In this document: piece after piece, positions 7,237-52,508 of the stretch
How positions within the stretch are numbered: the first letter of the stretch is position 1
How the letters are laid out: each line of letters opens with the position of its first letter
Assembly (NCBI GenBank): GCA_947503345.1
Contig: CANNCW010000005.1
Coordinates: 114,454 to 178,453, forward strand
Source: an uncultured Kangiella sp.
GTDB taxonomy: Bacteria > Pseudomonadota > Gammaproteobacteria > Enterobacterales > Kangiellaceae
Length of the DNA: 64,000 bases
Direction: 5' to 3'
The notes under the pieces: model-generated
Database searches by the model: none
What the model saw: the letters and a program-made list of their open reading frames with translations, nothing else
What the model was told of the DNA's origin: nothing
Made by a program: the position numbers and the translations under genes

Positions 7237-7824
7237 TTACTTAAAAAGTTGATAGGCGAGATAAGCAACAATGGCTAATACTAAAACAGCCCAGCCGATA
7301 ATTTCCATATATTGGCGAAGTTTATCTTCCATATCTTTACCACCCCACTTAGCCAACCCTGCAATTAAAAAAAACTGAGCGGCACGACCTACAATAGATG
7401 CAATCAAAAATGGCAAGAAAGTCATCTGCATAGCACCAGCAGTTAAGGTTAGGATTTTATAAGGTATTGGCGAGAAGCCAGCAATAAGAACAATCCATAT
7501 GCCATAAGTTTCAAACCAACCTTGGGCTTTTTCGATTTTACCTTGCCAACCAAACTGCTCTATCATTGGTGAAACTAGCGAATCGAAAGCATAAAAGCCG
7601 ATAAAATAAGCTGTGATCCCACCTAAGACTGAAAACAAAGTGGCGATAAAAGCTAAGCGCAAAGCTTGATTAGGTTTTGCCAATGCCATTGGTGCAAACA
7701 TAATTGCGGTTGGAATGGGGAAAAAAATCGACTCAATAAAACTGATAAAGCCTAAGATATAAACGGCATATTTGTGACGAGCCCATTCTAAACACTTGTC
7801 ATAAAGGCTGGTGAAAATCTTCAA
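7237..7824 (-). CDS. yqaA: DedA/YqaA family membrane protein
   Basis: SFIESIFFPIP and FSPIPYK motifs; conserved pcm-yqaA-nlpD position. Confidence 0.88.
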   Translation of the reverse strand: MKIFTSLYDKCLEWARHKYAVYILGFISFIESIFFPIPTAIMFAPMALAKPNQALRLAFIATLFSVLGGITAYFIGFYAFDSLVSPMIEQFGWQGKIEKAQGWFETYGIWIVLIAGFSPIPYKILTLTAGAMQMTFLPFLIASIVGRAAQFFLIAGLAKWGGKDMEDKLRQYMEIIGWAVLVLAIVAYLAYQLFK

Positions 7825-8489
7825 CGAGCAACGCCTCCCACTAGCGGTACAAACTTAACTTTTTCTACAAAGGTTTTACGGAATTTATCACCCTGCCTTT
7901 CCACTAAATACAACTCTTGTTCGGCTTCTTGCGTTCCCACAGGAATAATCATACGACCGCCGTCAGCCATTTGTAACAATAGTTTCTCTGGAATTTGTGA
8001 AGGTGCAGCAGTAACGATAATGGCGTCGAAAGGCGCGTTTTGTTGCCAGCCATTAAAGCCATCGGCAAATAATAATTGAATATTATGCAAGTTCAAATTG
8101 GCTAAAGTTTTGCGTGCTTTTATGTGAAGATTCCGGATACGCTCTACAGAAAATACCGTTTTACAAGTTTTCGCCAAAACCGCGGTCTGATAACCACAAC
8201 CTGTTCCAATTTCCAAAACCTTATTGGTAGGTCCGGTTTCTAATAATATCTCCGTCATTCTCGCTACGGTATAAGGTTGCGAAATGGTTTGTCCATCACC
8301 AATAGGAAGTGCTGTGTTTTCATAAGCGCGATGTGAAAGCCCTTCATCAATAAAAAGATGGCGCGGCGTTTCCTCCATGATAGTCAAAACACTTTGATTC
8401 TGAATACCTTCAGAAGTTAACCATTGCACTAAACGACTACGCGTTCTTTGCGAAGTCATGCCAATTCCCGATAAATGTGATGCATTCAT
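7821..8489 (-). CDS. pcm: Protein-L-isoaspartate O-methyltransferase
   Basis: GIGMTSQRTR, QTISQPY, VLEIGTGCGYQ, PFDAIIVTAA. Confidence 0.97.
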   Translation of the reverse strand: MNASHLSGIGMTSQRTRSRLVQWLTSEGIQNQSVLTIMEETPRHLFIDEGLSHRAYENTALPIGDGQTISQPYTVARMTEILLETGPTNKVLEIGTGCGYQTAVLAKTCKTVFSVERIRNLHIKARKTLANLNLHNIQLLFADGFNGWQQNAPFDAIIVTAAPSQIPEKLLLQMADGGRMIIPVGTQEAEQELYLVERQGDKFRKTFVEKVKFVPLVGGVAR

Positions 8490-8502
8490 AAACTAGATCT
8501 TA

Positions 8503-9252
8503 TTAAAATTGTTGTAAAAATTTTTCTAATTCGTCAAAACTATTATAAGCAGTTAGATCCACAATAATAGGCGTTATCGAAACATAACCATTCTCAACCG
8601 CATGAAAGTCAGTGCCCTCTCCAACATCTTGACCTTCTGGCTGTGGTCCAATCCAGTAAATATCACGCCCTTTAGGATCTTTAGCTGGAATAATAGTATC
8701 AGCCCGATGCCTATTTCCCAAGCGAGTTAGCTTAAAACCTTTGATTTTCTCATAAGGTACATCAGGAACATTAATATTAATCACGCGATTGCTGCTAATT
8801 GGCGTATTTATTAGCTTTTCAATCACCTCAACAGCAACTTTTGCCGCTGTTTCGTAATGGCTACAATTATGACCATTGAGCGACACAGCAACTGCGGTAT
8901 GGCCTAAAGCACGCCCTTCCATTGCAGCGGCGATAGTGCCTGAATAAAGTGCATCATCACCCAAGTTCGCACCTGTATTAATACCCGCAACTACCATATC
9001 AGGTGCTTGCTCCATCAAATGGTGCGTTCCTAAATGAACACAATCGGTTGGAGTTCCAGTTACCGAATAAAAACCTCTTTCGGTTTTATGAGCACGAATA
9101 GGCTGATCTAATGTTAAAGAGTTCGAAGCTCCACTACGGTTACGATCAGGCGCAACTACCGTTACATCGGCGATATTGGATAAATGGTCATACAGCTCAT
9201 TAATTCCTGGAGCGAAAAAACCATCATCATTACTAAGTAATATTTTCATCAT
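8503..9252 (-). CDS. surE: 5'/3'-nucleotidase SurE
   Basis: ILLSNDDG, VAPDRNRSGAS, GTPTDCV, SGTIAAA. Confidence 0.97.
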   Translation of the reverse strand: MMKILLSNDDGFFAPGINELYDHLSNIADVTVVAPDRNRSGASNSLTLDQPIRAHKTERGFYSVTGTPTDCVHLGTHHLMEQAPDMVVAGINTGANLGDDALYSGTIAAAMEGRALGHTAVAVSLNGHNCSHYETAAKVAVEVIEKLINTPISSNRVININVPDVPYEKIKGFKLTRLGNRHRADTIIPAKDPKGRDIYWIGPQPEGQDVGEGTDFHAVENGYVSITPIIVDLTAYNSFDELEKFLQQF

Positions 9253-10288
9253 TCTTTTCTACTTTTAAATCCACTAATTCACGCAACAAGCTAGTAGCAA
9301 AAGCCCCTTTAGGCAGACTAAAGCTTAATTCAAGTTCGTTTTCTGAAGACCAGCTAACTTGAAGCTCATTCGGAAATACTCTAATCACTCTCGCATCTAA
9401 GGACAAACCTTTTGTGGCTAATTTATCAATAGTGTCAGAGTATTCATTTAATATCTTCTGCTCGAAATCGCGAGCTTGACCAGAGTTTTTATCTCTGCCT
9501 CGTCCTACCAAACTTGCGGTAGGGTGAATATCTTTGTCATCATAACGAGCTTGCTCTACAGCAATATCCTCAACCATAAATCCTGACTCAGAACCATCCA
9601 GTTGAACATAATCACCATCTAAAAGCTGATTAAAAAGTCCTTGGTCTATACGTTTAGAAAGCAAATCATTAAAGATCGCCGAGCGAATGGCTGAAAACAT
9701 TAAGCCTTGCAGATTACGATTTTTTAGACGCTTATTAGCTTTCAATAAATCCAAACCACGTGCCAAATTATCCCCATTATGACCAAAACGTTGCTCACCA
9801 AAATAATTTGGAAAGCCCATTTGTTCAATTTGCTTTAATTTGTTTTCAATTATGTCTTTATTGCCCGAAAAGTTTCTAAGCTTGATTGTAAACTGATTTG
9901 ATTTAACTGCCCCAATCCGTAGTTTTTTATCATGTCTTGTTGCAATTAATACCTTAACTTCATCATCATTAAAACCTTGCCAATCAATTTCTTGTAGCAG
10001 TGGCAGCTGAACGCTAAACCACTGACGAGCTATAGCAAAACGATCCTTTTTACCCGCATAACCAATATCTAAGGGCTTAACATCTGCAAAACGGCGCAGT
10101 TTATGACAAACAATATCAGTATTAACGTTTATTTTTTCGATAAATAATAAATGATGGGCACCTTCGCCGGATGGCTCAAAGCGTAAAGTTTCAGTCACTC
10201 GGAAATCTTCGATTTGCGCTCTGAACTGAGCTTGCCCTGCGGGCTCGCCGGTTAGGCGAGACCAGTTGTATAAGGTTATATCGGACAT
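9233..10288 (-). CDS. truD: tRNA pseudouridine(13) synthase TruD
   Basis: YAGKKDRFA (catalytic Asp), PNYFGEQRFG, FSLPKGAFATSLLREL. Confidence 0.95.
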   Translation of the reverse strand: MSDITLYNWSRLTGEPAGQAQFRAQIEDFRVTETLRFEPSGEGAHHLLFIEKINVNTDIVCHKLRRFADVKPLDIGYAGKKDRFAIARQWFSVQLPLLQEIDWQGFNDDEVKVLIATRHDKKLRIGAVKSNQFTIKLRNFSGNKDIIENKLKQIEQMGFPNYFGEQRFGHNGDNLARGLDLLKANKRLKNRNLQGLMFSAIRSAIFNDLLSKRIDQGLFNQLLDGDYVQLDGSESGFMVEDIAVEQARYDDKDIHPTASLVGRGRDKNSGQARDFEQKILNEYSDTIDKLATKGLSLDARVIRVFPNELQVSWSSENELELSFSLPKGAFATSLLRELVDLKVEKNDENIT

Positions 10289-10295
10289 TATTTTA

Positions 10296-10772
10296 TTAAG
10301 CTTTAGTTAACAGACATATAGCGTGAACGGCAATACCTTCCTTGCGCCCAACAAAGCCTAATTTTTCAGTAGTAGTAGCTTTGATATTAATTTGATCAAA
10401 GTCAACATCACAAACAGCAGCAATGATGGCACGCATTCCTTCAATCTTATTCGCCATTTTAGGCGTCTGTGCCACAATAGTAACGTCTAAATTCCCCAAA
10501 ACATAAGCAGAATCTTTCACTAAGACCATCACTTGCTTTAAAAGCTCTTTACTATCGGCACCTTTAAAAGATTCATCGGTATCAGGAAAGTGATGTCCAA
10601 TATCACCTTTAGCAATCGCACCCAAAAAAGCATCGCAAACCGCATGCAAAACCACATCGCCGTCAGAATGAGCCAATAAGCCCTGCTCACCTTTAAACTC
10701 AACGCCGCCTAGGATTAAAGGTTTATCCCCACCAAACTTATGCACATCATAGCCATGACCAATTCGAAACAT
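10296..10772 (-). CDS. ispF: 2-C-methyl-D-erythritol 2,4-cyclodiphosphate synthase
   Basis: [44 protein letters not shown]. Confidence 0.98.
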
Positions 10773-10796
10773 GAAGCCTACTCAGTAATTTATCAA

Positions 10797-12014
10797 TTAA
10801 GATGATCTTACCTCTATACTTCGTTTATGCCAAACTAATTGCTCCGCTTCAGCCAATGTATTCGCAATACAACCTAATTTATCTTTACCTAACTCATTAA
10901 CCTGCTGAATCGTTTGAATTTTCAAAAAACTGGCAACACTCAATCCACTTGAGTATTTAGCAGAGCCCATGGTTGGTAAAGTATGATTTGGCCCGGCACA
11001 ATAATCGCCATAAGCAACAGCACTATTATCACCAATAAAAATTGCACCAAAGTTATTCAAGTCAGCCTCTTGAATTCTTGCGTCTGCTAATAACAGGTGC
11101 TCAGGCGCGAAATTATCTGAAAATTCAATCATGTCTTTTTTATCAGTCGCCAAAACTAAAGTTATTTGCTTAGACTGGTATAACCCCCATAAATAATCAT
11201 CGGAACTGATTTTTTCATAAAGAGCAGCTATAAGATTTATTTGATCAGATACAAAAACACTATAAGCCTGCGGATCATGCTCTGCTTGAGCTGCCATATC
11301 CGCAATTACCCAATCTAAATTCGATTCTTCCCCAGCCAATATGAGTAATTCACTCGGACCCGCTGGAACATCAATTGCCAATCTTGACTGAAAATATTGC
11401 TTGGCGGCATTGACGTACTGGTTACCAGGGCCAACAACCATCTCTACGGGCTTTGAGTCTTGATAGCCTAAAGCTAAAGCGGAGATAGCTTGAGCGCCAC
11501 CAATCCTAATAAAGCTTGTTGCCCCGGCTAAAGAAGCTGCCGCTAAAATAGCTGGATGGTCCGAAGGTGAGCAGGCAATACGCTCTTCGCAGCCAGCTAT
11601 TTTTGCTGGAATAAGGGTCATTAAAGCGGTAGAAATCAAAGGGAACCTTCCACCAGGAATATAGGCTCCGATTCTTTTGATTGGACGATAGCAGTAGCCG
11701 TAACGACCAGTATTATCAGTAAACTCACGATCGGTTAAAGACTCCTTCTGAAATAGGCAAAATTGCTCTATCCTTTTAGCTGCTGACACGATGGCATCTG
11801 ACAAAGCTTCATCTAGCTCGTAATCCACAAAAGATTTTAGTGGAATAAAATCAGGACAAAAACCATCAAATCGCTTACTTAAATTATTAATCGCCGTATC
11901 GCCGTCCTGCTCGACTTCTTTGATCAACTCAATAACAGACTGCAAACGAAAAGTGCTTTGTTCAGCATTCGGTCTTTGCCAGTTTTCAGTGGTGAAATAT
12001 CGATTATCCTGCAT
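10797..12014 (-). CDS. hisD: Histidinol dehydrogenase
   Basis: YIPGG, VGPGNQYV, AGPSE, AQAEHD, PEHL, GDYCAGPNHTLPT. Start set at ATG 12014 (SD AGGTG 6 nt upstream); the ORF track uses GTG 12023. Confidence 0.93.
   Translation of the reverse strand: MQDNRYFTTENWQRPNAEQSTFRLQSVIELIKEVEQDGDTAINNLSKRFDGFCPDFIPLKSFVDYELDEALSDAIVSAAKRIEQFCLFQKESLTDREFTDNTGRYGYCYRPIKRIGAYIPGGRFPLISTALMTLIPAKIAGCEERIACSPSDHPAILAAASLAGATSFIRIGGAQAISALALGYQDSKPVEMVVGPGNQYVNAAKQYFQSRLAIDVPAGPSELLILAGEESNLDWVIADMAAQAEHDPQAYSVFVSDQINLIAALYEKISSDDYLWGLYQSKQITLVLATDKKDMIEFSDNFAPEHLLLADARIQEADLNNFGAIFIGDNSAVAYGDYCAGPNHTLPTMGSAKYSSGLSVASFLKIQTIQQVNELGKDKLGCIANTLAEAEQLVWHKRSIEVRSS
10805..10833 (-). promoter_or_regulatory. Candidate sigma70 promoter inside the last codons of hisD, pointing into ispF
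   Basis: Minus strand TTGGCA (10833-10828), 17-nt spacer, TAAGAT (10810-10805); about 32 nt upstream of the ispF ATG. Confidence 0.5.
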
Positions 12015-13242
12015 TACGCGCACCTAGCTCACTCATAATATTCTTAGCTGAAACGCCTTTCGACTTTGCGTTAACCAAAGCAAAATATAATAAATCTGCC
12101 GCCTCCCAGCGCACATCTTCTTGCGACTCTGCCTCGATAAGCTCTAAACATTCTTCATTAAGCTTTTCAGCTTGCAGTGCTTTATCATTAAATAATTTAT
12201 TGGTGTAAGAATTTACTTCTGGCTGCTCAATCCTTCGTTGCAATACTTGATCTAACGAATAAAGACTAAATTCAGGTTTTTGACTAGCGAAACAACTATA
12301 ACGGTCAAAATGGCAAGCATTTCCCGTTTGTTTAACTTGGAATATTAAGGTGTCGCCATCACAATCGTAATCAATATTCATTAGCAGCTGACCATTACCG
12401 CTAGCAAGTCCTTTCTGCCAAACCTCTTTACGAGACCGACTGTAATAAACGCCCCGCTGGCTATCTATCGCTTGCGCTAATGAAGCTTGATTAGAGTAAG
12501 CCAACATTAAAACGCTACGAGTTTCATAATCCTGCACTATGGTTGGTATTAAATCGAACTTATCGAAATCCAAGCAAGAGAATAATCCGTCTTTCAAATT
12601 AATTTTGTTGGTATAAAGGGACATACCAATTTGACTATTTGCCCCAAGTCGGTTTATGTACTGAATGTCATCATAATCAGTGATACCTCCAGCAACCGTT
12701 ACAGGAACTTTTGAGTTCTTAATCACTTGGCTAATTCTTTGCTTATCAATACCTTTCAATAAACCTTCTTTATTCACTTGGGTGTATAAAAATTCAGAAC
12801 ATTTTTTCTCAAGCAATGGTATTAAATCTATTACCTTTGTCTTAGACTTTTCTTTCCAACCCTTAATTGCCCAATTATCATCAAAGGCGTCTATTGCAAA
12901 AATTAATTGTTGTTTCGGTAGCTTATTAACAAATTCATCTTGGCAATTTGTGCCAATAATAATCTTAGAGGCGCCGCTGGCAAGGTAATCTCTTGCGGTA
13001 TCATAATCTCTTATCCCTCCTCCAACTCGGCAAGCTCGTCGAGCTAATAGTTGCTTAATTAATGGCTTATTATCACCTCGACCTAATGCCGCATTCAAAT
13101 CTATAATCGCTACTTCGCCATAAAGAGCGAACTCTTCTAACAAATCAAAAACATTCTCTTTTTCAACTATCTTTTTGTCAGGGTTACCCTGCTGTAATTG
13201 AACGGCCTTGCCATCCAATAAATCAATTGATGGTATTAACAT
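12004..13242 (-). CDS. hisA-hisIE: Fusion of HisA (ProFAR isomerase), HisI (PR-AMP cyclohydrolase) and HisE (PR-ATP pyrophosphatase)
   Basis: aa 1-~222: IPSIDL, VGGGIR, IFAIDA (HisA). aa ~224-325: LIPTIVQD, YYSRSR..W.KG..SG, DCDGD, ACH...SCF (HisI). C-terminus: SYT..L, EK..EE, EAADLLY (HisE). One continuous frame. Confidence 0.9.
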   Translation of the reverse strand: MLIPSIDLLDGKAVQLQQGNPDKKIVEKENVFDLLEEFALYGEVAIIDLNAALGRGDNKPLIKQLLARRACRVGGGIRDYDTARDYLASGASKIIIGTNCQDEFVNKLPKQQLIFAIDAFDDNWAIKGWKEKSKTKVIDLIPLLEKKCSEFLYTQVNKEGLLKGIDKQRISQVIKNSKVPVTVAGGITDYDDIQYINRLGANSQIGMSLYTNKINLKDGLFSCLDFDKFDLIPTIVQDYETRSVLMLAYSNQASLAQAIDSQRGVYYSRSRKEVWQKGLASGNGQLLMNIDYDCDGDTLIFQVKQTGNACHFDRYSCFASQKPEFSLYSLDQVLQRRIEQPEVNSYTNKLFNDKALQAEKLNEECLELIEAESQEDVRWEAADLLYFALVNAKSKGVSAKNIMSELGARNAG

Positions 13243-13997
13243 TTTCTCACCTCAATACTATTTTGAATTAATTTTTCTTTAACTTTCGATACGGTTGTTT
13301 CTCCACGATGAAACATCCCAGCTGCTAACGCTGCGTCACTTCCAGCTTTAAATGTATCCACAAAATCTTGTGCATTAGAGGCTCCGCCCGAAGCAATAAT
13401 TTGTATAGATGATTTCTGACAAACCTTGGCCATCAAGTCATTGTCAAAACCTTCACCAGTTCCATCTTTATGCATCGCGGTTAGCAAAATTTCACCAGCA
13501 CCACGTTGTTCCACTTCACTAATCCACTTAAATGGATCTTTATGCGTTGGCGTATGACCTCCATTAATAAATACCTGATATTGTTCATTCACTTGGTTAA
13601 CATCTATCGCAACCACTAAACATTGAGAGCCAAAACCTATAGCAATTTGGTCAATAAGATCTGGGGTTTTAACAGCTGCAGTATTTAAAGCGACTTTATC
13701 TGCTCCAGCATCTAAAAATGCCACCACATCTCCATAAGAATTAAGCCCGCCGCCAACGGTAAATGGAATAGATAGATTCTTAGCAACATTGGTAACAGTA
13801 TCTAAGGCATTTTTTCGATTTTCCAAAGTAGCCTTAATATCTAGAAACATTATTTCATCAGCTCCTTGTTCTTGGTAATTTATAGCTAATTCAACGGGGT
13901 CACCCATATCCTTCAAGCCTTTAAAATTAACGCCTTTTACCACTCTGCCGTTAGCGACATCCAAGCAAACAATTACCCGCGATTTTAATTTAGACAT
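13236..13997 (-). CDS. hisF: Imidazole glycerol phosphate synthase, cyclase subunit
   Basis: RVIVCLDV, VVKGVNF, GDPVELA, GADEIMFLDI, DGTGEGFD, IIASGGA. Confidence 0.97.
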   Translation of the reverse strand: MSKLKSRVIVCLDVANGRVVKGVNFKGLKDMGDPVELAINYQEQGADEIMFLDIKATLENRKNALDTVTNVAKNLSIPFTVGGGLNSYGDVVAFLDAGADKVALNTAAVKTPDLIDQIAIGFGSQCLVVAIDVNQVNEQYQVFINGGHTPTHKDPFKWISEVEQRGAGEILLTAMHKDGTGEGFDNDLMAKVCQKSSIQIIASGGASNAQDFVDTFKAGSDAALAAGMFHRGETTVSKVKEKLIQNSIEVRKC

Positions 13998-14584
13998 TGT
14001 TTTAGAATCTCCTCACCTTGTTTACCCGATTTTTCAGGATGAAATTGAAATGCTGTTAGCCCTTTAGATTGGATAGAAGCTGAGAACTCATCTCCATAAG
14101 AAACTAAAGAAGTTGCAAACCTAGACTCTTTAACTGCATAACTATTTACAAAATAAACGTCTCTATCACTTAAGAAAGGTATATCTGAATTCAGAGAACA
14201 CCAACCGACCATAGGTTGTTTTGGGCTATTTAACTTAGTAACCCTACCTTCCAATAAACCTAACCCTTCTACGCCCAAATCCTCTTCAGATGATTGGAAA
14301 AATATTTGCAAGCCAACACAGATCCCTACAATTGTTCTGTCTTGTAGATACCAGTCTATTATTACTTTAGATAATCCATTATCGTTTAAGCGTTGCATGA
14401 CACTACCGAACCTACCTTGACCGGGAATGACCATAGCCTTGAATTGTTTTTCTGATTGCTTATCAATATCAGATGCTTGGCTGATCATCACAGGCTCAAG
14501 CCCAATACGCTTCAAGCAAGAAAAAAGACTAAATAGATTGCCAGCTCCAGTATCAATCACTGCTACTTTTTTGATATCAGTCAT
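13985..14584 (-). CDS. hisH: Imidazole glycerol phosphate synthase, glutaminase subunit
   Basis: IDTGAGN, IPGQG, GICVGLQ (nucleophile Cys), QFHPEKSG. Confidence 0.96.
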   Translation of the reverse strand: MTDIKKVAVIDTGAGNLFSLFSCLKRIGLEPVMISQASDIDKQSEKQFKAMVIPGQGRFGSVMQRLNDNGLSKVIIDWYLQDRTIVGICVGLQIFFQSSEEDLGVEGLGLLEGRVTKLNSPKQPMVGWCSLNSDIPFLSDRDVYFVNSYAVKESRFATSLVSYGDEFSASIQSKGLTAFQFHPEKSGKQGEEILKQCLN

Positions 14585-15159
14585 AAAACACCTTTTGAGC
14601 TATTTTCTAAGGCAGTACTAGCTAATGCTTGCTTTAATGCAAACGCTACCGCCTTAAAACTAGCCTCAATTAAGTGATGATTATTATCAAAATATTCAGT
14701 TTTGATATGCAGACTTATTTGCGCATTAATAGCAAAGCTATAGAAGAAGTGTTTCCACATCTCTGTTGCAATATTTCCTATCTGCTCACGACTAAAGGGC
14801 AAGTCGGTAATGCTATAAGCACGACCACAAACGTCCACCGCAACTAACACTAAAGTTGCATCCATTGGCAATAATCGTTGGCCATAACGCTGAATTTTTG
14901 CAGATGCGCGCCATGCTTTTTGTAATGCCTGACCTAAACATATAGCCACATCTTCAATTAAGTGATGGTCATCAACCTCTAAGTCACCTTGCGCAATTAC
15001 TTTCAAATTCCAGCCAGCATGTAGCGCAAGTTGAGTAAGCATATGGTCAAAAAATGGTAACCCTGTATTTATTTCTAAGTTTTGATTACCCGCTATATTT
15101 AATTTGAGTTTGATCTGAGTTTCTTTTGTTTCTCGTTCTATAGATACAGTTTGGCTCAT
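14581..15159 (-). CDS. hisB: Monofunctional imidazoleglycerol-phosphate dehydratase
   Basis: RETKETQI, FFDHML, DDHHLIED, NNHHLIEASFKA; no N-terminal phosphatase domain. Confidence 0.96.
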   Translation of the reverse strand: MSQTVSIERETKETQIKLKLNIAGNQNLEINTGLPFFDHMLTQLALHAGWNLKVIAQGDLEVDDHHLIEDVAICLGQALQKAWRASAKIQRYGQRLLPMDATLVLVAVDVCGRAYSITDLPFSREQIGNIATEMWKHFFYSFAINAQISLHIKTEYFDNNHHLIEASFKAVAFALKQALASTALENSSKGVL

Positions 15160-16826
15160 AATAAATCCTCTAGCTCATTAACACTTTCAAGAACAATGTC
15201 AGCACCAAATTGGTATAAACTCTTATCGCCAATACCTATAGCTAATGCCCCTGCTGATTTAGCTGCAAGCATATCGTCAGGTGCATCACCTAACATCCAG
15301 AGCGAGGTCTTTTTGTAATATTTTTTCGCCTTATCTATTCCTTCCGGACTTGGCTTAGATTTAATGACATCATCATCACTAATCAATAACGTGTTTAATA
15401 TTCCAAGTAAATTTAATCCAGCCTGCCCTTCAGTTTTACCTCTACCGGTTACAACGGCAGTACAAAGACTTTTGGATTTTTGAATAAAAATATAATCTGA
15501 TAATGATCTTTGGATTATTCGAGCCTCTTGTTCATATAATCCTTTCGCTTTTCCATCTCCTAAATAGAATGATTGAAAGGTATCTTTTACTCTATTGAAT
15601 TCAATTTCCTTGCCTTGTTTACGGATAAGTTCTTGTGCAAGAATCCAATCATTATTAAAACCTCCTTGCCCTCGTGTATTTAAAACATCAGCCACCGGGG
15701 GGCTTACACCAGTAAAATCCTCGACTGTTTTAATGATTGCTAAGTCATAGCTTTCTGAGGTATCAATCAAAACCCCATCCATATCAAAACAAATGAGTTC
15801 GGGCTCTAAAGCAAGCTTAAGTGCTGATAACAATCTTTTAATATAAAACGGAATGGCTATTCTTATAGCTTCAAATGAATTTACCTCTGAGAGACCTACT
15901 AACTCAGTTTTTATCTGTATATTCAGCTGCTTACAAGCAGCAGAGATGAGCTTAAGGCGTTTCGAATCTCCTCGTATTAATAAAAAGTTTGCTTCACTAG
16001 AACTTAATACCAATGGATAATCAGATAAAAAATTAATTATCTGCTGACGATTTAAATTAATTTGCTTGCAATAATTTTTAACTTCTAAGCTTGCAGATTG
16101 GGTAAAGGCTAACAACGCTAACTCGATATTAGGCTGCGAAATATTGAAAGGCATTGCCAACTTTTTGAACTCATTAATTAAAGTTTGTTGTCCTAATAAA
16201 TAACCTACTCGGATAGCGGCAAGACCATAGGCTTTGGATAAGGTTCTAAGGATCACTAAATTATCGAAGTCATTAAGTAATGCTAGATACTCATCTTCTA
16301 GATTAGTAAATTCGATATAAGCACAATCGAGAAAAACGTAAGCATTATTTTCTTTAGCCTTCTCACAAACAGCTCTTACTTTCTCTGCTGATAAAGTTTC
16401 GCCAGTGGGATTATTTGGACTTGTGATAATCACCATTGAGTTTTGCTCTATTGAAGACAAAAGTGATTCTTGATCAATATTTAACTCTGCTAATGGCTCT
16501 ATAATTTCGCAGTCAACTTTCCAGGAGTCCTTTCCAACCCAATACTGACTAAAAACAGGTAATGGCAGAATCAATTTAGAATCATTGATTTTTACCCATT
16601 TAAACATCAACTCTATGGCTTCATCGCCACCATTAGTAATCAGCAATTGATCTTTATCAATCTGAAATTTGTCGCAAATGACTTGCTGTAATTGATCCTT
16701 ATTAGGATACTTCCATAGACTATCAACAGGCATTTTAAACCCTGATAACCATAGAGGTAGACTATCCGAGCGTTCATTAAAATCGAGCTTCAGCGTTTTT
16801 TCATTCTGACAACTTAAAACATCCAT
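15156..16826 (-). CDS. hisC: Histidinol-phosphate aminotransferase fused to a C-terminal HAD-family phosphatase
   Basis: aa 1-~340: ITNGGDEAI, SPNNPTG, DCAYIEF, RTLSKAYGLAAIRVGY (PLP Lys). aa ~342-556: FDMDGVLID (D348/D350), VTGR, SKPSPEG, LGDAPDD (HAD motifs I-IV). Confidence 0.9.
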   Translation of the reverse strand: MDVLSCQNEKTLKLDFNERSDSLPLWLSGFKMPVDSLWKYPNKDQLQQVICDKFQIDKDQLLITNGGDEAIELMFKWVKINDSKLILPLPVFSQYWVGKDSWKVDCEIIEPLAELNIDQESLLSSIEQNSMVIITSPNNPTGETLSAEKVRAVCEKAKENNAYVFLDCAYIEFTNLEDEYLALLNDFDNLVILRTLSKAYGLAAIRVGYLLGQQTLINEFKKLAMPFNISQPNIELALLAFTQSASLEVKNYCKQINLNRQQIINFLSDYPLVLSSSEANFLLIRGDSKRLKLISAACKQLNIQIKTELVGLSEVNSFEAIRIAIPFYIKRLLSALKLALEPELICFDMDGVLIDTSESYDLAIIKTVEDFTGVSPPVADVLNTRGQGGFNNDWILAQELIRKQGKEIEFNRVKDTFQSFYLGDGKAKGLYEQEARIIQRSLSDYIFIQKSKSLCTAVVTGRGKTEGQAGLNLLGILNTLLISDDDVIKSKPSPEGIDKAKKYYKKTSLWMLGDAPDDMLAAKSAGALAIGIGDKSLYQFGADIVLESVNELEDLL

Positions 16827-16835
16827 TGCTGACTC

Positions 16836-17684
16836 CTAAAGTACTTTTCTAATCGGCGTTTCTAAAATATCCGTTGCACCAGCAGAAATTAATCTGGGCA
16901 ATAGATCCTTGGTCATACGCCTCTCAATAGCTGCTTTAATAGCAAACCCATCGCCTCGATAGAGCTCGCTCACCGTTGGCGATCGCATTGCTGGTAGCAA
17001 ATCTACAATTTTTTCGACCTTATCTTTAGGACAATTCATTTCTAATAAGACTCGCTTACGACCATTCATCACCCCCCTCATTAATAGTAAAAGGTCATCG
17101 ATTTGCTTCTTCTTTTGAGGATCTTTGAGTATAGACTTGTTTGCGATAAACTGAGTTGAGCTTTCCATAGCAGTACCAACTATTTTCAATCGATTTACTC
17201 GGATGGTTGAGCCAGTACTGGTATTATCAATGACCATATCAGCATCTTCAGGTGGAAAAACTTCAGTAGCGCCATAAGCTCTAAAGAGTTGATAATTAGC
17301 ACCAATAGAATCCAAGTATTGCTTTGCAATTTGTTTATATTCCGAAGCAACTATAATTTCTCGTTGTCTAACTTCACTCCAATCCCATTCCTCTGGAATG
17401 CAAGCCACGATTTTTACTGGGTTAAAGCCGAGGTTTTCTAGCACCTCAACGTCCGCATTTTGTTCTATAATCCAATCCATACCAGCAAAACCAATATCGT
17501 GCTGACCCAATGCAACCATTTCTGGAATGTTTTGGCTTTTCAATAACTTAACCTCAATATCACAACCAAATAAAGTTGGTCTGTAATTGCGACTATCACC
17601 AACCAAGGTTAAGCCAATATCCGATAATAGCTCCTCGACTTTCTCGTAAAGCTTACCCTTTGGTATTACCATTTTTAACGCCAT
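16836..17684 (-). CDS. hisG: ATP phosphoribosyltransferase, long form
   Basis: IPKG, DIGFAGMDW, YGATEVFP, DMVIDNTSTGSTIRVNRL, C-terminal regulatory domain (LPAMRSPTV); SD GGAG. Confidence 0.95.
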   Translation of the reverse strand: MALKMVIPKGKLYEKVEELLSDIGLTLVGDSRNYRPTLFGCDIEVKLLKSQNIPEMVALGQHDIGFAGMDWIIEQNADVEVLENLGFNPVKIVACIPEEWDWSEVRQREIIVASEYKQIAKQYLDSIGANYQLFRAYGATEVFPPEDADMVIDNTSTGSTIRVNRLKIVGTAMESSTQFIANKSILKDPQKKKQIDDLLLLMRGVMNGRKRVLLEMNCPKDKVEKIVDLLPAMRSPTVSELYRGDGFAIKAAIERRMTKDLLPRLISAGATDILETPIRKVL

Positions 17685-17718
17685 TTTGATTCTCCAAACT
17701 ATTAAATTTTAATTCTGC

Positions 17719-17759
17719 AAATAAAAACCCCGCTGACCTTTCGGAGCAACGGGGTTTTA
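17719..17759 (-). terminator. Attenuator 2 terminator, proximal to hisG
   Basis: Minus strand AAAACCCCGTTG-CTCCGAAAGGT-CAGCGGGGTTTT followed by TATTT: 12-bp stem with one G-U pair, GAAA loop, U-rich tail. Confidence 0.85.
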
Positions 17760-17776
17760 AAAATCGATTTATATAA

Positions 17777-17845
17777 CTACAACAAATCCCACCGTCGCCA
17801 ATGCAAAGTATGATGATGATGTGTTGTTATAAGTTGTATATACAT
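17777..17845 (-). CDS. hisL: His leader peptide 2, MYIQLITTHHHHTLHWRRWDLL (22 aa)
   Basis: Manual translation; four consecutive CAT codons plus a fifth His; stop TAG 17 nt before terminator 2. Not in the ORF track. Confidence 0.8.
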   Translation of the reverse strand: MYIQLITTHHHHTLHWRRWDLL

Positions 17846-17870
17846 ATTAGTTTCTATTTTCTTAAAGCAT

Positions 17871-17899
17871 AAAAAAAGCCCCGCAATTTGCGGGGCTTT
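17871..17899 (-). terminator. Attenuator 1 terminator, distal
   Basis: Minus strand AAAGCCCCGCA-AAT-TGCGGGGCTTT plus TTTT: perfect stem followed by a U run (7 T after the GC stem). Confidence 0.9.
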
Positions 17900-17932
17900 A
17901 AAATTCATTCTATTCGATTATTTTAAGCAATA

Positions 17933-17992
17933 TCACCCCGCCATCAGTTTTTCATGATGGTGATGATGGTTTTGTGCTTGCAAAATAATCAT
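17933..17992 (-). CDS. hisL: His leader peptide 1, MIILQAQNHHHHHEKLMAG (19 aa)
   Basis: Manual translation; five consecutive His codons (CAT CAT CAC CAT CAT); the 3' end GCGGGGT is complementary to the 5' arm of terminator 1. Not in the ORF track. Confidence 0.85.
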   Translation of the reverse strand: MIILQAQNHHHHHEKLMAG

Positions 17993-18035
17993 GCTGTGAT
18001 TTAAACCTATACTGTTTTTAAATGCAACTATTTTT

Positions 18036-18749
18036 TTAATGACTCAATGAAATAGATGCAAGAATTAAATCTTCATGTTCGGTAACTTTTATATTACGCT
18101 TTGAACCAACCACCAGAGCAGGACTATAACCTTGCGCTTCCATAGCTGATGCCTCGTCGGTGATTAAAACATTTTCCTGTAACGATTTCTCAATAGCACT
18201 TTGTAACCGTGCTACAGGGAAGTATTGTGGTGTCTGGGCAAGCCAAATAGTTTCTCTTGGAATAGTTTTATTAATGGTTTGTTGATTGTTAGTAACCTTA
18301 ACCGTATCAAATGAAGGTACCGCTAAAATCACACCGTCAGGCGAGGTTTCTTGAGCTTTGATTAGGTTGTCGATATGCATAGAATACAGGCATGGACGTG
18401 CTGCATCATGCACCATTACCCAATCATTATCACCGCCAGCTTGTTTGATATATCTCAAACCATTGTTAACTGAATTGCCCCTTTCATCGCCACCATCAAC
18501 CACAATGATTTTTCTATGATTTGAAACTTTTAATTTTTTCCAATGACGATCATTTGGATTTATCGCAACTATGACTTTATGTATTTTAGGGTGGGTAATA
18601 AAAGCATCTAAGCTATGCTCTAGAATGGTTTTATTACCTATGGATAAGTATTGTTTGGGTATATCAGAGCCCATTCGCGAGCCAATGCCAGCTGCGGGAA
18701 TGATAGCCCAAATTCTTTGTGGAGTATCTAAACGAGAAGAACTGGTCAT
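18036..18749 (-). CDS. ispD: 2-C-methyl-D-erythritol 4-phosphate cytidylyltransferase
   Basis: IPAAGIGSRMG..IPKQY, VHDAARP, AQTPQ, TDEASAME, NIKVT. Confidence 0.97.
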   Translation of the reverse strand: MTSSSRLDTPQRIWAIIPAAGIGSRMGSDIPKQYLSIGNKTILEHSLDAFITHPKIHKVIVAINPNDRHWKKLKVSNHRKIIVVDGGDERGNSVNNGLRYIKQAGGDNDWVMVHDAARPCLYSMHIDNLIKAQETSPDGVILAVPSFDTVKVTNNQQTINKTIPRETIWLAQTPQYFPVARLQSAIEKSLQENVLITDEASAMEAQGYSPALVVGSKRNIKVTEHEDLILASISLSH

Positions 18750-23230: not shown

Positions 23231-23737
23231 CTACTTACAGCGGTCAGGACGAATCGTAGCGCTTACAGGGTTACCCGCACTGCCGTCAGCCTTTTGTGGC
23301 GTATATTGATAGGTTACTTCTTCAAAATTCAAAGTCACCGATTCAGTCAGCAATTCCTGCCCACCTGAGCCACCCGCAGTCACTGACGAAACGAATAAAT
23401 TTTTAAAGTCCAAAACAAGATAAGCCAAACTACCTCTATCACCAACAGACTTTCTTACTGTTAATTTAGCATTTGGATATATAACTCCATTAACATGCCC
23501 CATCAATAGATCTGGAGATGCTAAATCTGCATATTTAACCATTGAAAGGTCTTGCACGCAGGTTGTCCTACCGTTTGTGGACGAGCCCCAAGACCAAGCT
23601 AAAACGTCAATTTCATTTTTATGATTGATGTTTTTGCTTTCACCTTCCACACCGTCAATTTTTAGAAACATATTTTCTGAATACGCAGAGGTATGGAACA
23701 ATAGAATAGCAATCGAAATGATAACTTTTTTATACAT
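23231..23737 (-). CDS. Hcp1-family (T6SS tube-like) protein with an N-terminal signal peptide
   Basis: MFLKIDGVEGES...HKNEIDVLAWSWG...VQDLSMVKYADLASPDL...AKLTVRK...VSSV..GGSGG..LTESVTLNF..V..QY.PQKADG follows the Hcp1 pattern. Preceded by MYKKVIISIAILLFHTSAYS; SD AAGGA before ATG 23737. Confidence 0.88.
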   Translation of the reverse strand: MYKKVIISIAILLFHTSAYSENMFLKIDGVEGESKNINHKNEIDVLAWSWGSSTNGRTTCVQDLSMVKYADLASPDLLMGHVNGVIYPNAKLTVRKSVGDRGSLAYLVLDFKNLFVSSVTAGGSGGQELLTESVTLNFEEVTYQYTPQKADGSAGNPVSATIRPDRCK

Positions 23738-42300: not shown

Positions 42301-43524
42301 TTAGGAACTAAAGATTGCTTTTGTTTCAAATACACTCGTTGGAAACGAGTTACCATTAGATTGGAGTAATCGTTTTACAGCAAAATCAAATAGTAGCCCA
42401 TTATATTCGCGAATAATATTCAAGTCTTGCATCCATTTATCATCTAATAATTTATTTCTAATTAAGCGCTTCAAAGAAATCAAAGGCATCACTGCAGGCA
42501 AAGGATAATCACTTCCATTAACCAATCTTGAATGCCAGTGGGAGCTTTCTAAAAGTTGTTTGATCTTACGCGGAGCTCGGTTAATTTGTAAAATTGCAGA
42601 GGTTTCGCCATACAAGTTTTCCTTATATTCATCCATCATCCGACTAAACAAATCAAAACTATCGGTCATTGGTAAATTAGGCTTGTCTAAATCTTGATTC
42701 TCGCCAAGACTCGCACAATGAGCGACTATAACTTTAACGCCATTATCTAAAGCTCTACGCAATCGCAAAGGGTTACCCAGCTCCTGTGTATCCGAGCCTT
42801 GTACAGCTTTTTCTGTTCCAGCATGGCATATAAGTGGTAATTTAAGTTGCGCTAACCTTTGGTAAAACTTATCGCATTTTGCAGAAGCTGGGTCCATATT
42901 CTGCGCTGGTGGCAACCATTTAACTGCAACAGCACCCTGCGCTTTAGCCTTATCAAGTGCATCCAAAGCATCAAGTCGATAAGGATGAATTGACGCAACC
43001 CATTCAAATTGTTGTGAGAACTTTTTTGCTAATAATGCAGGGTATTCATTGGGTACAAAAAAAGTGCTCAACTCTTTTATGGGTTGACCATTAGAGTCAT
43101 GATGGTAATCAAATGCTAACAGCATTGTTTTAAAGCCTTCAGGCATATCTTTGAGTAGCACATTAAGCCGGTCAACAAAGCCATTATCCGCTTGGCTTAT
43201 ATCGCTTATACAAGAAGCATTAAGGTAAAATTGGAACTGCGCATATTGCAAAGGGTGAGCCAATGATTGCATATCAGGATTTATCCAAATCCCAGAATCA
43301 GCATCCCCCATACCTACTGTGTGCACATGACAGTCCCATACATTACTAGGTGTAATATCTTGCCAAATTTTTTGCCACAGTTCGGTATCTTTTATCATAC
43401 TAGGTAGCTTTGCCGAGCAAGGATTTTTTAGATAGCCATCCCAATATTTTGAAGCTTGCCAATAGCCTACAGCCCCCAGTGCAGAAGTCACTGCCAATCC
43501 TTTTAATAGTCTTCTTCTTTTCAT
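42301..43524 (-). CDS. Amidohydrolase-superfamily metalloenzyme with a twin-arginine-like signal
   Basis: MKRRRLLKGLAV...; DCHVH, WVASIHPY, VKWLP, CHAG, VAHCA, NGSDYP. Confidence 0.8.
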   Translation of the reverse strand: MKRRRLLKGLAVTSALGAVGYWQASKYWDGYLKNPCSAKLPSMIKDTELWQKIWQDITPSNVWDCHVHTVGMGDADSGIWINPDMQSLAHPLQYAQFQFYLNASCISDISQADNGFVDRLNVLLKDMPEGFKTMLLAFDYHHDSNGQPIKELSTFFVPNEYPALLAKKFSQQFEWVASIHPYRLDALDALDKAKAQGAVAVKWLPPAQNMDPASAKCDKFYQRLAQLKLPLICHAGTEKAVQGSDTQELGNPLRLRRALDNGVKVIVAHCASLGENQDLDKPNLPMTDSFDLFSRMMDEYKENLYGETSAILQINRAPRKIKQLLESSHWHSRLVNGSDYPLPAVMPLISLKRLIRNKLLDDKWMQDLNIIREYNGLLFDFAVKRLLQSNGNSFPTSVFETKAIFSS

Positions 43525-51062: not shown

Positions 51063-51749
51063 ATGCTAAAAAAAATCTTTTTCCCTATGCTTTTGTTATC
51101 TTTTTGCATGGATATCTACTCAGATGATAATGTTCTTGTAAAACGAATACCAACAAAGGAAGATGCAGCTTATGCAATGTCTCTATACAAGTCTAAAAAA
51201 TATAAGCAGGCAAAAAAAATATACACATCTCTTGCAAAAATTGGAGATAATCATGCTCAGTATATGTTATCAATTTTATCTTTTCACGGATTAGGGGAAG
51301 CTAAAAATCCTATAAAAGCTTATGGATGGGCAAAATTATCGCAAAATAGTCAAATAAGTGCTTTACAGAAAAACTTCAAGAAAATTAAACACTCTTTATC
51401 TCAGGAAGAAATTAAATATGGAGAGAAACTTTATAAAGAGCTTGAATCAAAATTTAGTGATTTGGTGATAGCTAATAGATATAGTCAGTTATTTGAAGAC
51501 AAAACACTTGAGTGTACTGGTTCACGCATAAAAGGAAACTGCGGGAATATTCAAATCAACTGTGGCGGCGTTAGAAGCCATGAAGGTATCATAATCCCTT
51601 TAACGAAGAAAAATGAAGTTAAATGTATTAAACAAAAATTTGATATGAATATAGTTAAAATAGAGCACAGTAAAGATAGTCAAAAAATAGTAGCTGACTA
51701 TATTGAAAAAAAATACACTCCTCTTGTAACTGTTGAAAAAGAACAATGA
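51063..51749 (+). CDS. Secreted Sel1-like repeat protein, paralogue A
   Basis: Signal peptide; LAKIGDNHAQYMLS...HGLG..KN..KAYGW; CTGSRIKGNCG. Confidence 0.75.
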   Translation: MLKKIFFPMLLLSFCMDIYSDDNVLVKRIPTKEDAAYAMSLYKSKKYKQAKKIYTSLAKIGDNHAQYMLSILSFHGLGEAKNPIKAYGWAKLSQNSQISALQKNFKKIKHSLSQEEIKYGEKLYKELESKFSDLVIANRYSQLFEDKTLECTGSRIKGNCGNIQINCGGVRSHEGIIIPLTKKNEVKCIKQKFDMNIVKIEHSKDSQKIVADYIEKKYTPLVTVEKEQ

Positions 51750-51827: not shown

Positions 51828-52508
51828 ATGAACAAAAACATATTTTTTATAATACTATTTTTACTCTCAACCCAAGCATTACTCGCAGGAAAAGAAGAAC
51901 CTTACATTCCATCTAAAAAGGATCCTGCAACAGCGATGAAGCATTACCAAAACAGTCAATTTGACAAAGCTTTGGACTTATATAAGAAACTAGCCAAGTC
52001 AGGTGATAAGCATGCGCAGTATATGCTTTCAATAATTTATTACCATGGCTATGGAGTAGACAAAGATATTATAGAATCCTTTGCATGGTCAAAACTATCT
52101 ACAGAGACTCAAGTTAATGCTTTTGAAAACAATTACAAGTTCATAAGTCAAAATATTGCGGACAACTTGAAAACTACTGCCCTGTCTAGATACGAAGAAA
52201 TATACCGCAATTACAACGACTTAGCTGTAGCAAGAAGATACCGATTAATATTCAATAAAGAGTTGCCTATGTGCACAGGCTCTAGAATACGTGGTAACTG
52301 CGGAAATGTTAAAGCTTCTTGCAACGGGATTGGGAATCTTTCTTTAAATGCTCAAAGTGAAGAAAGATGTAAAGAATATGCAAAGAAGTTAGACCCTTTC
52401 TACATTGCTAGAATTAAAGAAAGTTCAGAGCAAGTTCGAGAATATATCCTAGAAAAGTCCAACCCTACGGTAACTATCAGTGAAACGGAAAAAGAAGCAA
52501 ATCCATAA
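51828..52508 (+). CDS. Secreted Sel1-like repeat protein, paralogue B
   Basis: Signal peptide; LAKSGDKHAQYMLS...HGYGVDKD..ESFAW; CTGSRIRGNCG. Confidence 0.75.
   Translation: MNKNIFFIILFLLSTQALLAGKEEPYIPSKKDPATAMKHYQNSQFDKALDLYKKLAKSGDKHAQYMLSIIYYHGYGVDKDIIESFAWSKLSTETQVNAFENNYKFISQNIADNLKTTALSRYEEIYRNYNDLAVARRYRLIFNKELPMCTGSRIRGNCGNVKASCNGIGNLSLNAQSEERCKEYAKKLDPFYIARIKESSEQVREYILEKSNPTVTISETEKEANP

Follow-up and report, generated by a model that had tools for sequence, protein, structure and literature searches.

A HisC–HAD phosphatase fusion in a Kangiella his operon, a probable bifunctional enzyme for steps 7 and 8 of histidine synthesis

Among described enzymes, the closest to the subject of this paper are two archaeal histidinol-phosphate phosphatases. 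The HAD protein nmHisN (Nmar_1556) of Nitrosopumilus maritimus is encoded between hisC and hisB (Kinateder 2024, PMC10804674). It acts on histidinol phosphate (kcat/KM 1.1e4 per M per s) and hydrolysed none of nine other phosphoesters, and an alanine scan defined a fingerprint of Y24, D25, K56 and E64, with I28 and I52 as accessory residues (PMC10804674). The second, toHisN of Thermococcus onnurineus, had been assayed earlier, by Lee et al. in 2008 (as cited in PMC10804674). It carries R56 and D64, and the resulting Y-D-R-D pattern is reported both for this enzyme and for 14% of the nmHisN cluster (PMC10804674). Here we describe a related domain that forms the C-terminal half of a HisC protein. 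It is encoded in a 64,000-nucleotide stretch of DNA from an uncultured marine Kangiella sp. (assembly GCA_947503345.1, contig CANNCW010000005.1, positions 114,454 to 178,453), which we refer to in full as the window. An earlier note on this DNA had proposed the domain as the phosphatase of step 8. That proposal has strong computational support from homology to nmHisN, a Y-D-R-D fingerprint, a histidine-attenuated operon and a link to hisC, by fusion or adjacency, that is conserved across phyla; judged on these sequence comparisons, the domain is very probably the histidinol-phosphate phosphatase of its operon.

Other HAD enzymes catalyse the same reaction. HisB-N, the phosphatase half of the enterobacterial HisNB protein, is likewise a histidinol-phosphate phosphatase of the HAD superfamily that is joined to a second his enzyme; however, its partner is the dehydratase, which catalyses a non-consecutive step, and it belongs to another HAD subfamily, with short loops in place of a helical cap (PMC10804674). 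The HisB-N type model TIGR01656 gives the window domain 29.2 bits against a cut-off of 84.15, and matches only the region of motifs III–IV. The origin of HisB-N is independent of that of the window domain. paHisN (PA0335) of Pseudomonas aeruginosa is also a HAD histidinol-phosphate phosphatase, from gammaproteobacteria with a dehydratase-only HisB, but is set apart by its description, having a phosphoserine-phosphatase-like cap and the fingerprint D16-D18-Y47; those who described it considered it to have evolved independently.

The fusion gene is listed with the other features in Table 1. Its open reading frame (ORF) is intact and joins two halves in frame, a whole HisC aminotransferase and a complete HAD phosphatase, with nearly no linker between them (junction LKLALEPELICFDMDG). 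This arrangement had been proposed in the earlier note, and a hidden Markov model (HMM) scan bears out both halves: PF00155 matches residues 45–320 with 128.9 bits (cut-off 19.7), and PF00702 and PF13419 match the C-terminal half with 50.2 and 45.3 bits, each over its cut-off. The exact protein is present, without a name, in NCBI-derived collections. The sequencing runs that contain the sequence are all DNA metagenomes (marine biofilm), with no RNA runs among them.

The N-terminal half has the class I/II aminotransferase fold and the pyridoxal phosphate (PLP) lysine, K198 within SKAYG; the motifs SPNNPTG and DCAY can also be read in its translation. The top NCBIfam match of the fusion protein is TIGR01141 (hisC), with 196.2 bits and an E value of 7e-58 over profile positions 19–311 of 349, which is below the equivalog cut-off of 276.55 bits. 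This shortfall, together with a second match to the CobD model TIGR01140 at 145.8 bits, would allow the half to be a different class I/II PLP enzyme, for instance a CobD-like threonine-phosphate decarboxylase, with the phosphatase acting on its product. We regard this as very unlikely: hisC remains the top match, the gene stands in the hisC position within an operon whose remaining genes cover every other his step and include no second hisC-like gene, the same arrangement is found in most of 80 related loci (below), and there are no cobalamin genes nearby.

In the C-terminal half, HAD catalytic motifs I–IV are complete, comprising D348, D350, T460, K491, D514 and D518. The motifs named in the earlier note were all found in the translation where it had placed them: DMDG at 348–351, TGR at 460–462, K491, GDAPDD at 513–518 and, in the cap, GGFNNDW at 388–394. 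The structure of the domain was predicted using AlphaFold2, with a mean predicted local distance difference test (pLDDT) score of 94.5. The model has a Rossmann-like core. Motifs I and II are separated by a single helical cap, whose helices occupy domain residues 20–111, between a strand at 7–10 and a strand at 118–122. This cap is shorter than the seven helices of toHisN or the nine of nmHisN. By profile, the closest solved sequence is the Thermococcus thioreducens phosphatase Tt82 (6IAH; E value 5e-30, with the runner-up at 9e-18), which also has the highest identity, 24%, among the structural matches to the window domain. We take Tt82 to be an orthologue of toHisN.

A search of 5.8 billion proteins with the domain alone (phmmer) found seven close relatives with 41–55% identity, all of them metagenome fragments. 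The C-terminus of HisC is still attached in six of the seven, and four of these six are named histidinol-phosphate aminotransferase at source. Beyond the close relatives, the search gave only TIGR01548-like haloarchaeal proteins and 324-residue proteins of the Nitrosopumilus type, the latter at E values of 1e-7 to 1e-9. The 324-residue proteins carry I20, Y24, D25, I28, I52, K56 and E64 as published, all at an offset of 17 residues, and are therefore nmHisN orthologues; one of them sits in a cluster of the order hisG-hisD-hisC-HAD-hisB-hisH-hisA-hisF-hisI. When the gammaproteobacterial fused domains were aligned to the nmHisN group using hhalign, the match covered the whole domain (217 columns) with a probability of 100% and an E value of 4.5e-42.

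In the alignment, Y360, D361, I364, V381, R385 and D393 of the window protein fall on Y24, D25, I28, I52, K56 and E64 of nmHisN. The window domain therefore carries the fingerprint Y-D-R-D of the assayed toHisN, with I364 and V381 as its accessory hydrophobic residues. It shares with nmHisN the HAD family, one helical cap between motifs I and II, a position between hisC and hisB, and fingerprint positions filled by Y, D, a basic and an acidic residue. It differs in that nmHisN, to which it has about 29% identity, is an unfused, stand-alone archaeal monomer of about 307–324 residues with two extra cap insertions, and carries K56 and E64 at the positions that R385 and D393 occupy in the window protein. 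toHisN and Tt82 share the Y-D-R-D pattern (in 6IAH by alignment) and a cap smaller than that of nmHisN; unlike the window domain, they are stand-alone proteins of about 240 residues from hyperthermophilic archaea.

The best HAD model for the domain is TIGR01548 (HAD-SF-IA-hyp1, an NCBIfam hypothetical equivalog), which scores 96.1 bits over the whole protein and 99.2 bits when the domain is taken by itself; the next HAD model reaches 45.8 bits. The curated cut-off of TIGR01548 is 140.2 bits. For comparison, the model gives 221 bits to a haloarchaeal protein (P0018), 166 bits to the fused domain of a Planctomycetota locus (L045), 154 bits to that of a Woesearchaeota locus (L057), 99 bits to the window domain alone and 80 bits to an nmHisN orthologue (P0071). 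By sequence, the window domain is thus placed as a divergent sister of TIGR01548 within a larger family to which nmHisN and toHisN also belong, and is a non-member by the NCBI rule. The resemblance to TIGR01548 put forward in the earlier note is real, in that the model scores about two-fold over any other and the nearly invariant GGFNNDW motif of the cap is common to both, but it does not amount to membership. True members such as P0018 also differ at fingerprint positions 25 and 56, where they have R and K. The note had further described the clade as one of uncertain function, to be given a function by the fusion. This does not hold: toHisN (2008) and nmHisN (2024) had already been assayed, so the fusion is not the first to assign a function to the family.

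The fusion does bear on the Arg-25 type, that is, TIGR01548 proper with the pattern Y-R-K-D, euryarchaeal proteins included, whose members are described as likely but less certain phosphatases (PMC10804674). Some HisC-fused domains from other phyla score 154–166 bits with TIGR01548 and are true members, and the fusion therefore adds independent genomic evidence, of the Rosetta-stone kind, for this type. At the locus of P0018, a true TIGR01548 gene from a haloarchaeon, no his genes adjoin, which speaks neither for nor against the assignment.

We then surveyed the occurrence of the fusion in one genome per species across 185,579 species. This confirmed 544 relatives; the counts that follow refer to the best 80 loci. 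The phosphatase domain is readable in 78 of these, being fused to HisC in 76 and split from it but adjacent in two, both from Acidobacteria. Where a downstream hisB was found it is always of the dehydratase-only kind (76 of 76 loci), and most loci that reach far enough have the same operon order, including a hisA:IE fusion. The nearer relatives, at 37–63% identity (loci L001–L044 and L047), come from Kangiella, Pleionea, Aliikangiella, Marinicella and related metagenome-assembled genomes; the best is a Kangiella with 63% identity and the same ftsB-ispD-[his]-ispF-truD-surE synteny. The distant relatives, at 27–31% identity, come from Planctomycetota, Anaerolineales, a myxobacterial genome, KSB1, Halobacteroidaceae, Cloacimonadota, Gastranaerophilales, Woesearchaeota, other DPANN archaea and Heimdallarchaeota.

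The same arrangement also occurs unfused. In the two Acidobacteria loci (L052, at 7923–9656, and L053; Paludibaculum, Bryobacterales), a hisC of about 350 codons and a HAD gene of 226 codons with the pattern Y-R-K-D are separate and lie a few bases apart, in the operon order hisIE-hisG-hisD-hisC-HAD-hisB, and represent the unfused counterpart of the fusion. Separate, adjacent genes in the order hisC, HAD, hisB are also found in Nitrosopumilus. A bacterial metagenome-assembled genome (L082) has a stand-alone HAD gene immediately ahead of hisB; upstream of this HAD gene is a partial gene with an S-x-ANF-x-L motif typical of HisC C-termini, in a match that is not significant (E value 0.24).

The split form, in which a stop codon and a short gap separate hisC from the HAD gene, is the one observation that would fit an artefact, in which a sequencing or assembly frameshift has joined two adjacent genes. 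The probability of this is close to nil. The same junction recurs in frame in 76 independent genomes, some of them from isolates of Kangiella, Marinicella, Pleionea and Aliikangiella. From these isolate genomes, nine full-length proteins of 544–573 residues have NCBI accessions, mostly RefSeq WP_. The exact window protein is on an NCBI contig of 201,189 bases; its partner in a cluster at 90% identity, a non-identical protein that likewise has 556 residues, is encoded on another NCBI contig, of 112,840 bases.

Residues were compared in 79 sequences, namely the window domain, the 76 fused domains and the two split ones. The catalytic D, D, K, D and D are conserved in all 79, and motif II has T or S. 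The fingerprint is YDRD in 42 sequences, YRKD in 22 and YDKD in three; the gammaproteobacterial group is nearly all Y-D-R-D, and the distant group mostly has Y-R-K-D, the pattern of TIGR01548 proper. Any fused domain might in principle be a catalytically silent module for ligand binding or scaffolding, and nothing specific speaks for this here; conservation of the catalytic residues of motifs I–IV in 79 of 79 sequences would be unexpected in a pseudo-enzyme, and we find such a role extremely improbable.

The genomic context also points to step 8. The operon lies on the minus strand in the order hisG, hisC:HAD, hisB, hisH, hisF, hisA:hisI:hisE, hisD, with the fusion gene second. The genes are tightly packed, with overlaps of a few bases at most junctions, including 4 bp between the stop of the fusion gene and the start of hisB. 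HisB is monofunctional, as the earlier note had read it, with 192 residues, no HAD part and a score over the cut-off of its dehydratase model (Table 1). In the 350-bp gap upstream of hisG there are two tandem leader peptides rich in His codons, each with a strong hairpin and a U run downstream. The Rfam His_leader model matches weakly at 17869–17969, with 31.8 bits against a gathering score of 49. Given these predicted leaders and terminators upstream, the phosphatase domain would be under histidine-specific attenuation.

No other phosphatase of the HAD, inositol-monophosphatase (IMPase) or PHP kind was seen among the remaining operon genes, in line with the earlier note, and none was seen elsewhere in the window on reading the translations of ORFs of at least 120–140 residues. 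The fusion protein itself has no PHP or inositol-monophosphatase Pfam match. A signature scan of the window ORFs for the same three kinds also found none, which carries little weight since its pattern for HAD motif I failed to pick up the known domain itself. Two candidates were considered and rejected: SurE (8503..9252) is a nucleotidase, but is part of the conserved ispF-truD-surE-pcm cluster, outside the his operon; and an ORF at 42301..43524 (407 residues, with a twin-arginine signal), considered as a PHP phosphatase, was found by Pfam to be Amidohydro_2.

Several points weigh against the assignment. The identity to the assayed enzymes is only about 24–31%, and the domain falls short of the TIGR01548 cut-off. 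The two cap insertions of nmHisN, of about 80 residues, are absent from the window domain in the hhalign alignment, and with its shorter cap the substrate contacts may differ from those of nmHisN. A fold search of the PDB with the AlphaFold2 model bore out a HAD-IA fold with a helical cap, but gave template-modelling (TM) scores of 0.6–0.77 to many HAD-IA enzymes with other substrates, and the fold is therefore silent on the substrate. The paper on Tt82, to go by its title, reportedly describes diverse substrate specificity. A second histidinol-phosphate phosphatase, of the IMPase, PHP or PA0335 type, may lie beyond the 64 kb seen.

The structural neighbours from the fold search are among the grounds for a different explanation, in which the HAD half is a general or differently specialised phosphatase (for example, for phosphoglycolate, sugar phosphates or pyrophosphate) that is joined to HisC by chance, and the true histidinol-phosphate phosphatase is encoded elsewhere in the genome, of which our view is limited to the 64-kb window. 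Its next HMM matches are indeed to PpaX and phosphoglycolate phosphatase, at 39–46 bits, and promiscuity is common among HAD enzymes, P. aeruginosa PA3255 and PA1143 having side activities on histidinol phosphate (PMC12220765). We nevertheless consider this explanation unlikely. TIGR01548 scores about two-fold over every other HAD model, the specificity fingerprint of the assayed homologues is retained, and no other candidate phosphatase was seen in the window. Moreover, the link to hisC and hisB is kept across unrelated phyla in both fused and unfused form, which would be hard to explain for an unrelated activity.

If the domain is the step-8 phosphatase, as we prefer, the fusion protein would carry out steps 7 and 8 of histidine synthesis, which are consecutive, as a single bifunctional enzyme. 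In step 7 the PLP-dependent HisC half would transaminate imidazole-acetol phosphate with glutamate to give L-histidinol phosphate; in step 8 the Mg2+-dependent HAD half would hydrolyse this to L-histidinol, which HisD would then oxidise. We infer the roles of residues in the HAD half from the general HAD mechanism and the alanine scan of nmHisN. D348 would attack the phosphate to form an aspartyl-phosphate intermediate, with D350 as general acid/base, T460 and K491 holding the phosphate, and D514 and D518 holding Mg2+. The helical cap would close on the substrate, with Y360, D361 and D393 contacting its imidazole and amino part and R385 stabilising the transition state. Histidinol phosphate may be handed directly between the two active sites of the fused enzyme. 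A kinetic benefit could arise from a fixed 1:1 stoichiometry, or from proximity that pulls the reversible transamination forward.

The fusion is neither a new enzyme family nor new chemistry. The enzyme family and its function are known from toHisN and nmHisN, and what is new is the fusion to HisC. Reviews of his fusions list hisA/F, hisIE, hisHF, hisNB and hisIED, and name hisD, N, B, H, F, I and E as the genes involved; a HisC–phosphatase fusion is absent from these reviews, and no paper that describes one was found in the literature searched. The public names of nine orthologues are “aminotransferase class I/II-fold PLP-dependent enzyme”, “histidinol-phosphate transaminase” and “hypothetical protein”, none of which covers the phosphatase half. 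Histidinol-phosphate phosphatase is the most frequent gap in pathway reconstruction, being absent in 20% of 208 prototrophic genomes (GapMind 2026), and about one-third of the histidine-making organisms in KEGG have no annotated enzyme of this kind. The fusion provides a sequence-only rule for filling the step-8 gap in the genomes that carry it.

A wider proposal, to which we give even chances, is that the fusion is the hallmark of a compact, horizontally moving his operon (hisG, hisC:N, hisB, hisH, hisF, hisA:IE and hisD, with hisG:C:N in DPANN archaea) that has spread through many bacterial and archaeal phyla, and that its fused Arg-25 members certify the whole TIGR01548 family as histidinol-phosphate phosphatases. 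If this is true, certification of TIGR01548 would close a sizeable part of the commonest remaining annotation gap in amino-acid pathways.

Table 1. Features of the his operon region, in window coordinates. All lie on the minus strand; residue numbers are those of the fusion protein unless another gene is named.
Feature	Coordinates	Strand	Details and evidence
His leader peptide 1, MIILQAQNHHHHHEKLMAG	17933..17992	-	translation
Intrinsic terminator, attenuator 1	17875..17899	-	terminator scan; fold energy -19.2 kcal/mol, z-score -4.8
His leader peptide 2, MYIQLITTHHHHTLHWRRWDLL	17777..17845	-	translation
Terminator-like hairpin and U run, attenuator 2	17724..17758	-	fold energy -20.9 kcal/mol, z-score -5.4
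hisG, long form, first operon gene	16836..17684	-	282 aa; TIGR00070 142 bits, TIGR03455 94.5 bits
hisC:HAD fusion gene	15156..16826	-	556 aa and stop, ATG start; ORF listing, translation, domain matches
HisC domain, histidinol-phosphate aminotransferase, step 7	15816..16826	-	aa 1–337; PF00155, TIGR01141, motifs in translation
HAD phosphatase domain, proposed histidinol-phosphate phosphatase, step 8	15159..15815	-	aa 338–556; TIGR01548, hhalign, AlphaFold2, 6IAH
HAD motif I DMDG (D348 nucleophile, D350 acid/base)	15774..15785	-	both invariant in the 79 compared sequences
Cap segment with specificity fingerprint Y360, D361, (I364, V381), R385, D393	15648..15749	-	alignment to nmHisN
hisB, imidazoleglycerol-phosphate dehydratase only	14581..15159	-	192 aa; NF002111 234.9 bits (cut-off 231); no HAD part
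hisH	13985..14584	-	199 aa; overlapping ends; named from translation and operon position
hisF	13236..13997	-	253 aa; named from translation and operon position
hisA:hisI:hisE fusion	12004..13242	-	412 aa; TIGR00007 (HisA) aa 2–218 of its product, 164.9 bits; NF002747 (HisIE) aa 222–410, 184.1 bits
hisD, histidinol dehydrogenase, uses the product of the phosphatase	10797..12023	-	408 aa; TIGR00069 360 bits

The his operon is flanked by ispD/ftsB and ispF-truD-surE-pcm. It is inserted (window 10296–18749) between ispD and ispF, which are usually neighbours in the gammaproteobacterial ftsB-ispD-ispF-truD-surE-pcm cluster, and this position fits acquisition of the operon as a unit. The insertion site is common to most Kangiella loci (L001–L007 and L009), but is not shared by other Kangiellaceae or Marinicella. 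Of the two leaders between ispD and hisG (17724–17992), one contains HHHHH and the other HHHH-x-x-H, each with its own terminator hairpin, and the attenuator appears to be duplicated. Tandem pairs of leaders upstream of hisG are also present in Kangiella (L001, L004–L007 and L009) and Marinicella (L021 and L040), and single His leaders occur even in Planctomycetota (L063 and L072) and Acidobacteria (L052).

Other fusions were seen in these operons. The trifunctional HisA:HisI:HisE protein, which is absent from the lists in the his-fusion reviews, is kept in most related loci at about 405–430 residues. Four DPANN loci, with Woesearchaeota and Iainarchaeum as hosts (L057, at 7335–9650; L066; L068; and L076, at 3041–5365), encode a triple fusion of a short HisG, HisC and HAD in 765–775 residues, with the domains PF01634, PF00155 and PF13419; a 2007 review knew of no archaeal his fusion besides hisIE. 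hisH orthologues hold the same position in related loci as in the window. In two loci (L035 and L037) a single ORF of 455–465 residues follows hisB. That of L035 matches HisH and HisF, which suggests a bacterial HisH:HisF fusion like yeast HIS7; that of L037 is listed as HisF alone, with no separate hisH shown there.

Elsewhere in the window, the minus-strand ORF at 1932–6146 encodes a very large protein of 1404 residues that is predicted to be secreted. Its translation shows a signal peptide and the HExxH motif of zinc proteases, and its C-terminal part has repeated domains and a sorting-like tail. A minus-strand ORF of 168 codons at 23231–23737 resembles, by its translation alone, an Hcp-type secretion tube protein. 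Between 50000 and 54000 the G+C content drops to 0.35–0.36 with a strong positive AT skew, and this region may be an acquired island; it contains two paralogous small lipoprotein-like ORFs (51063..51749 and 51828..52508), with other unrecognised plus-strand ORFs alongside.

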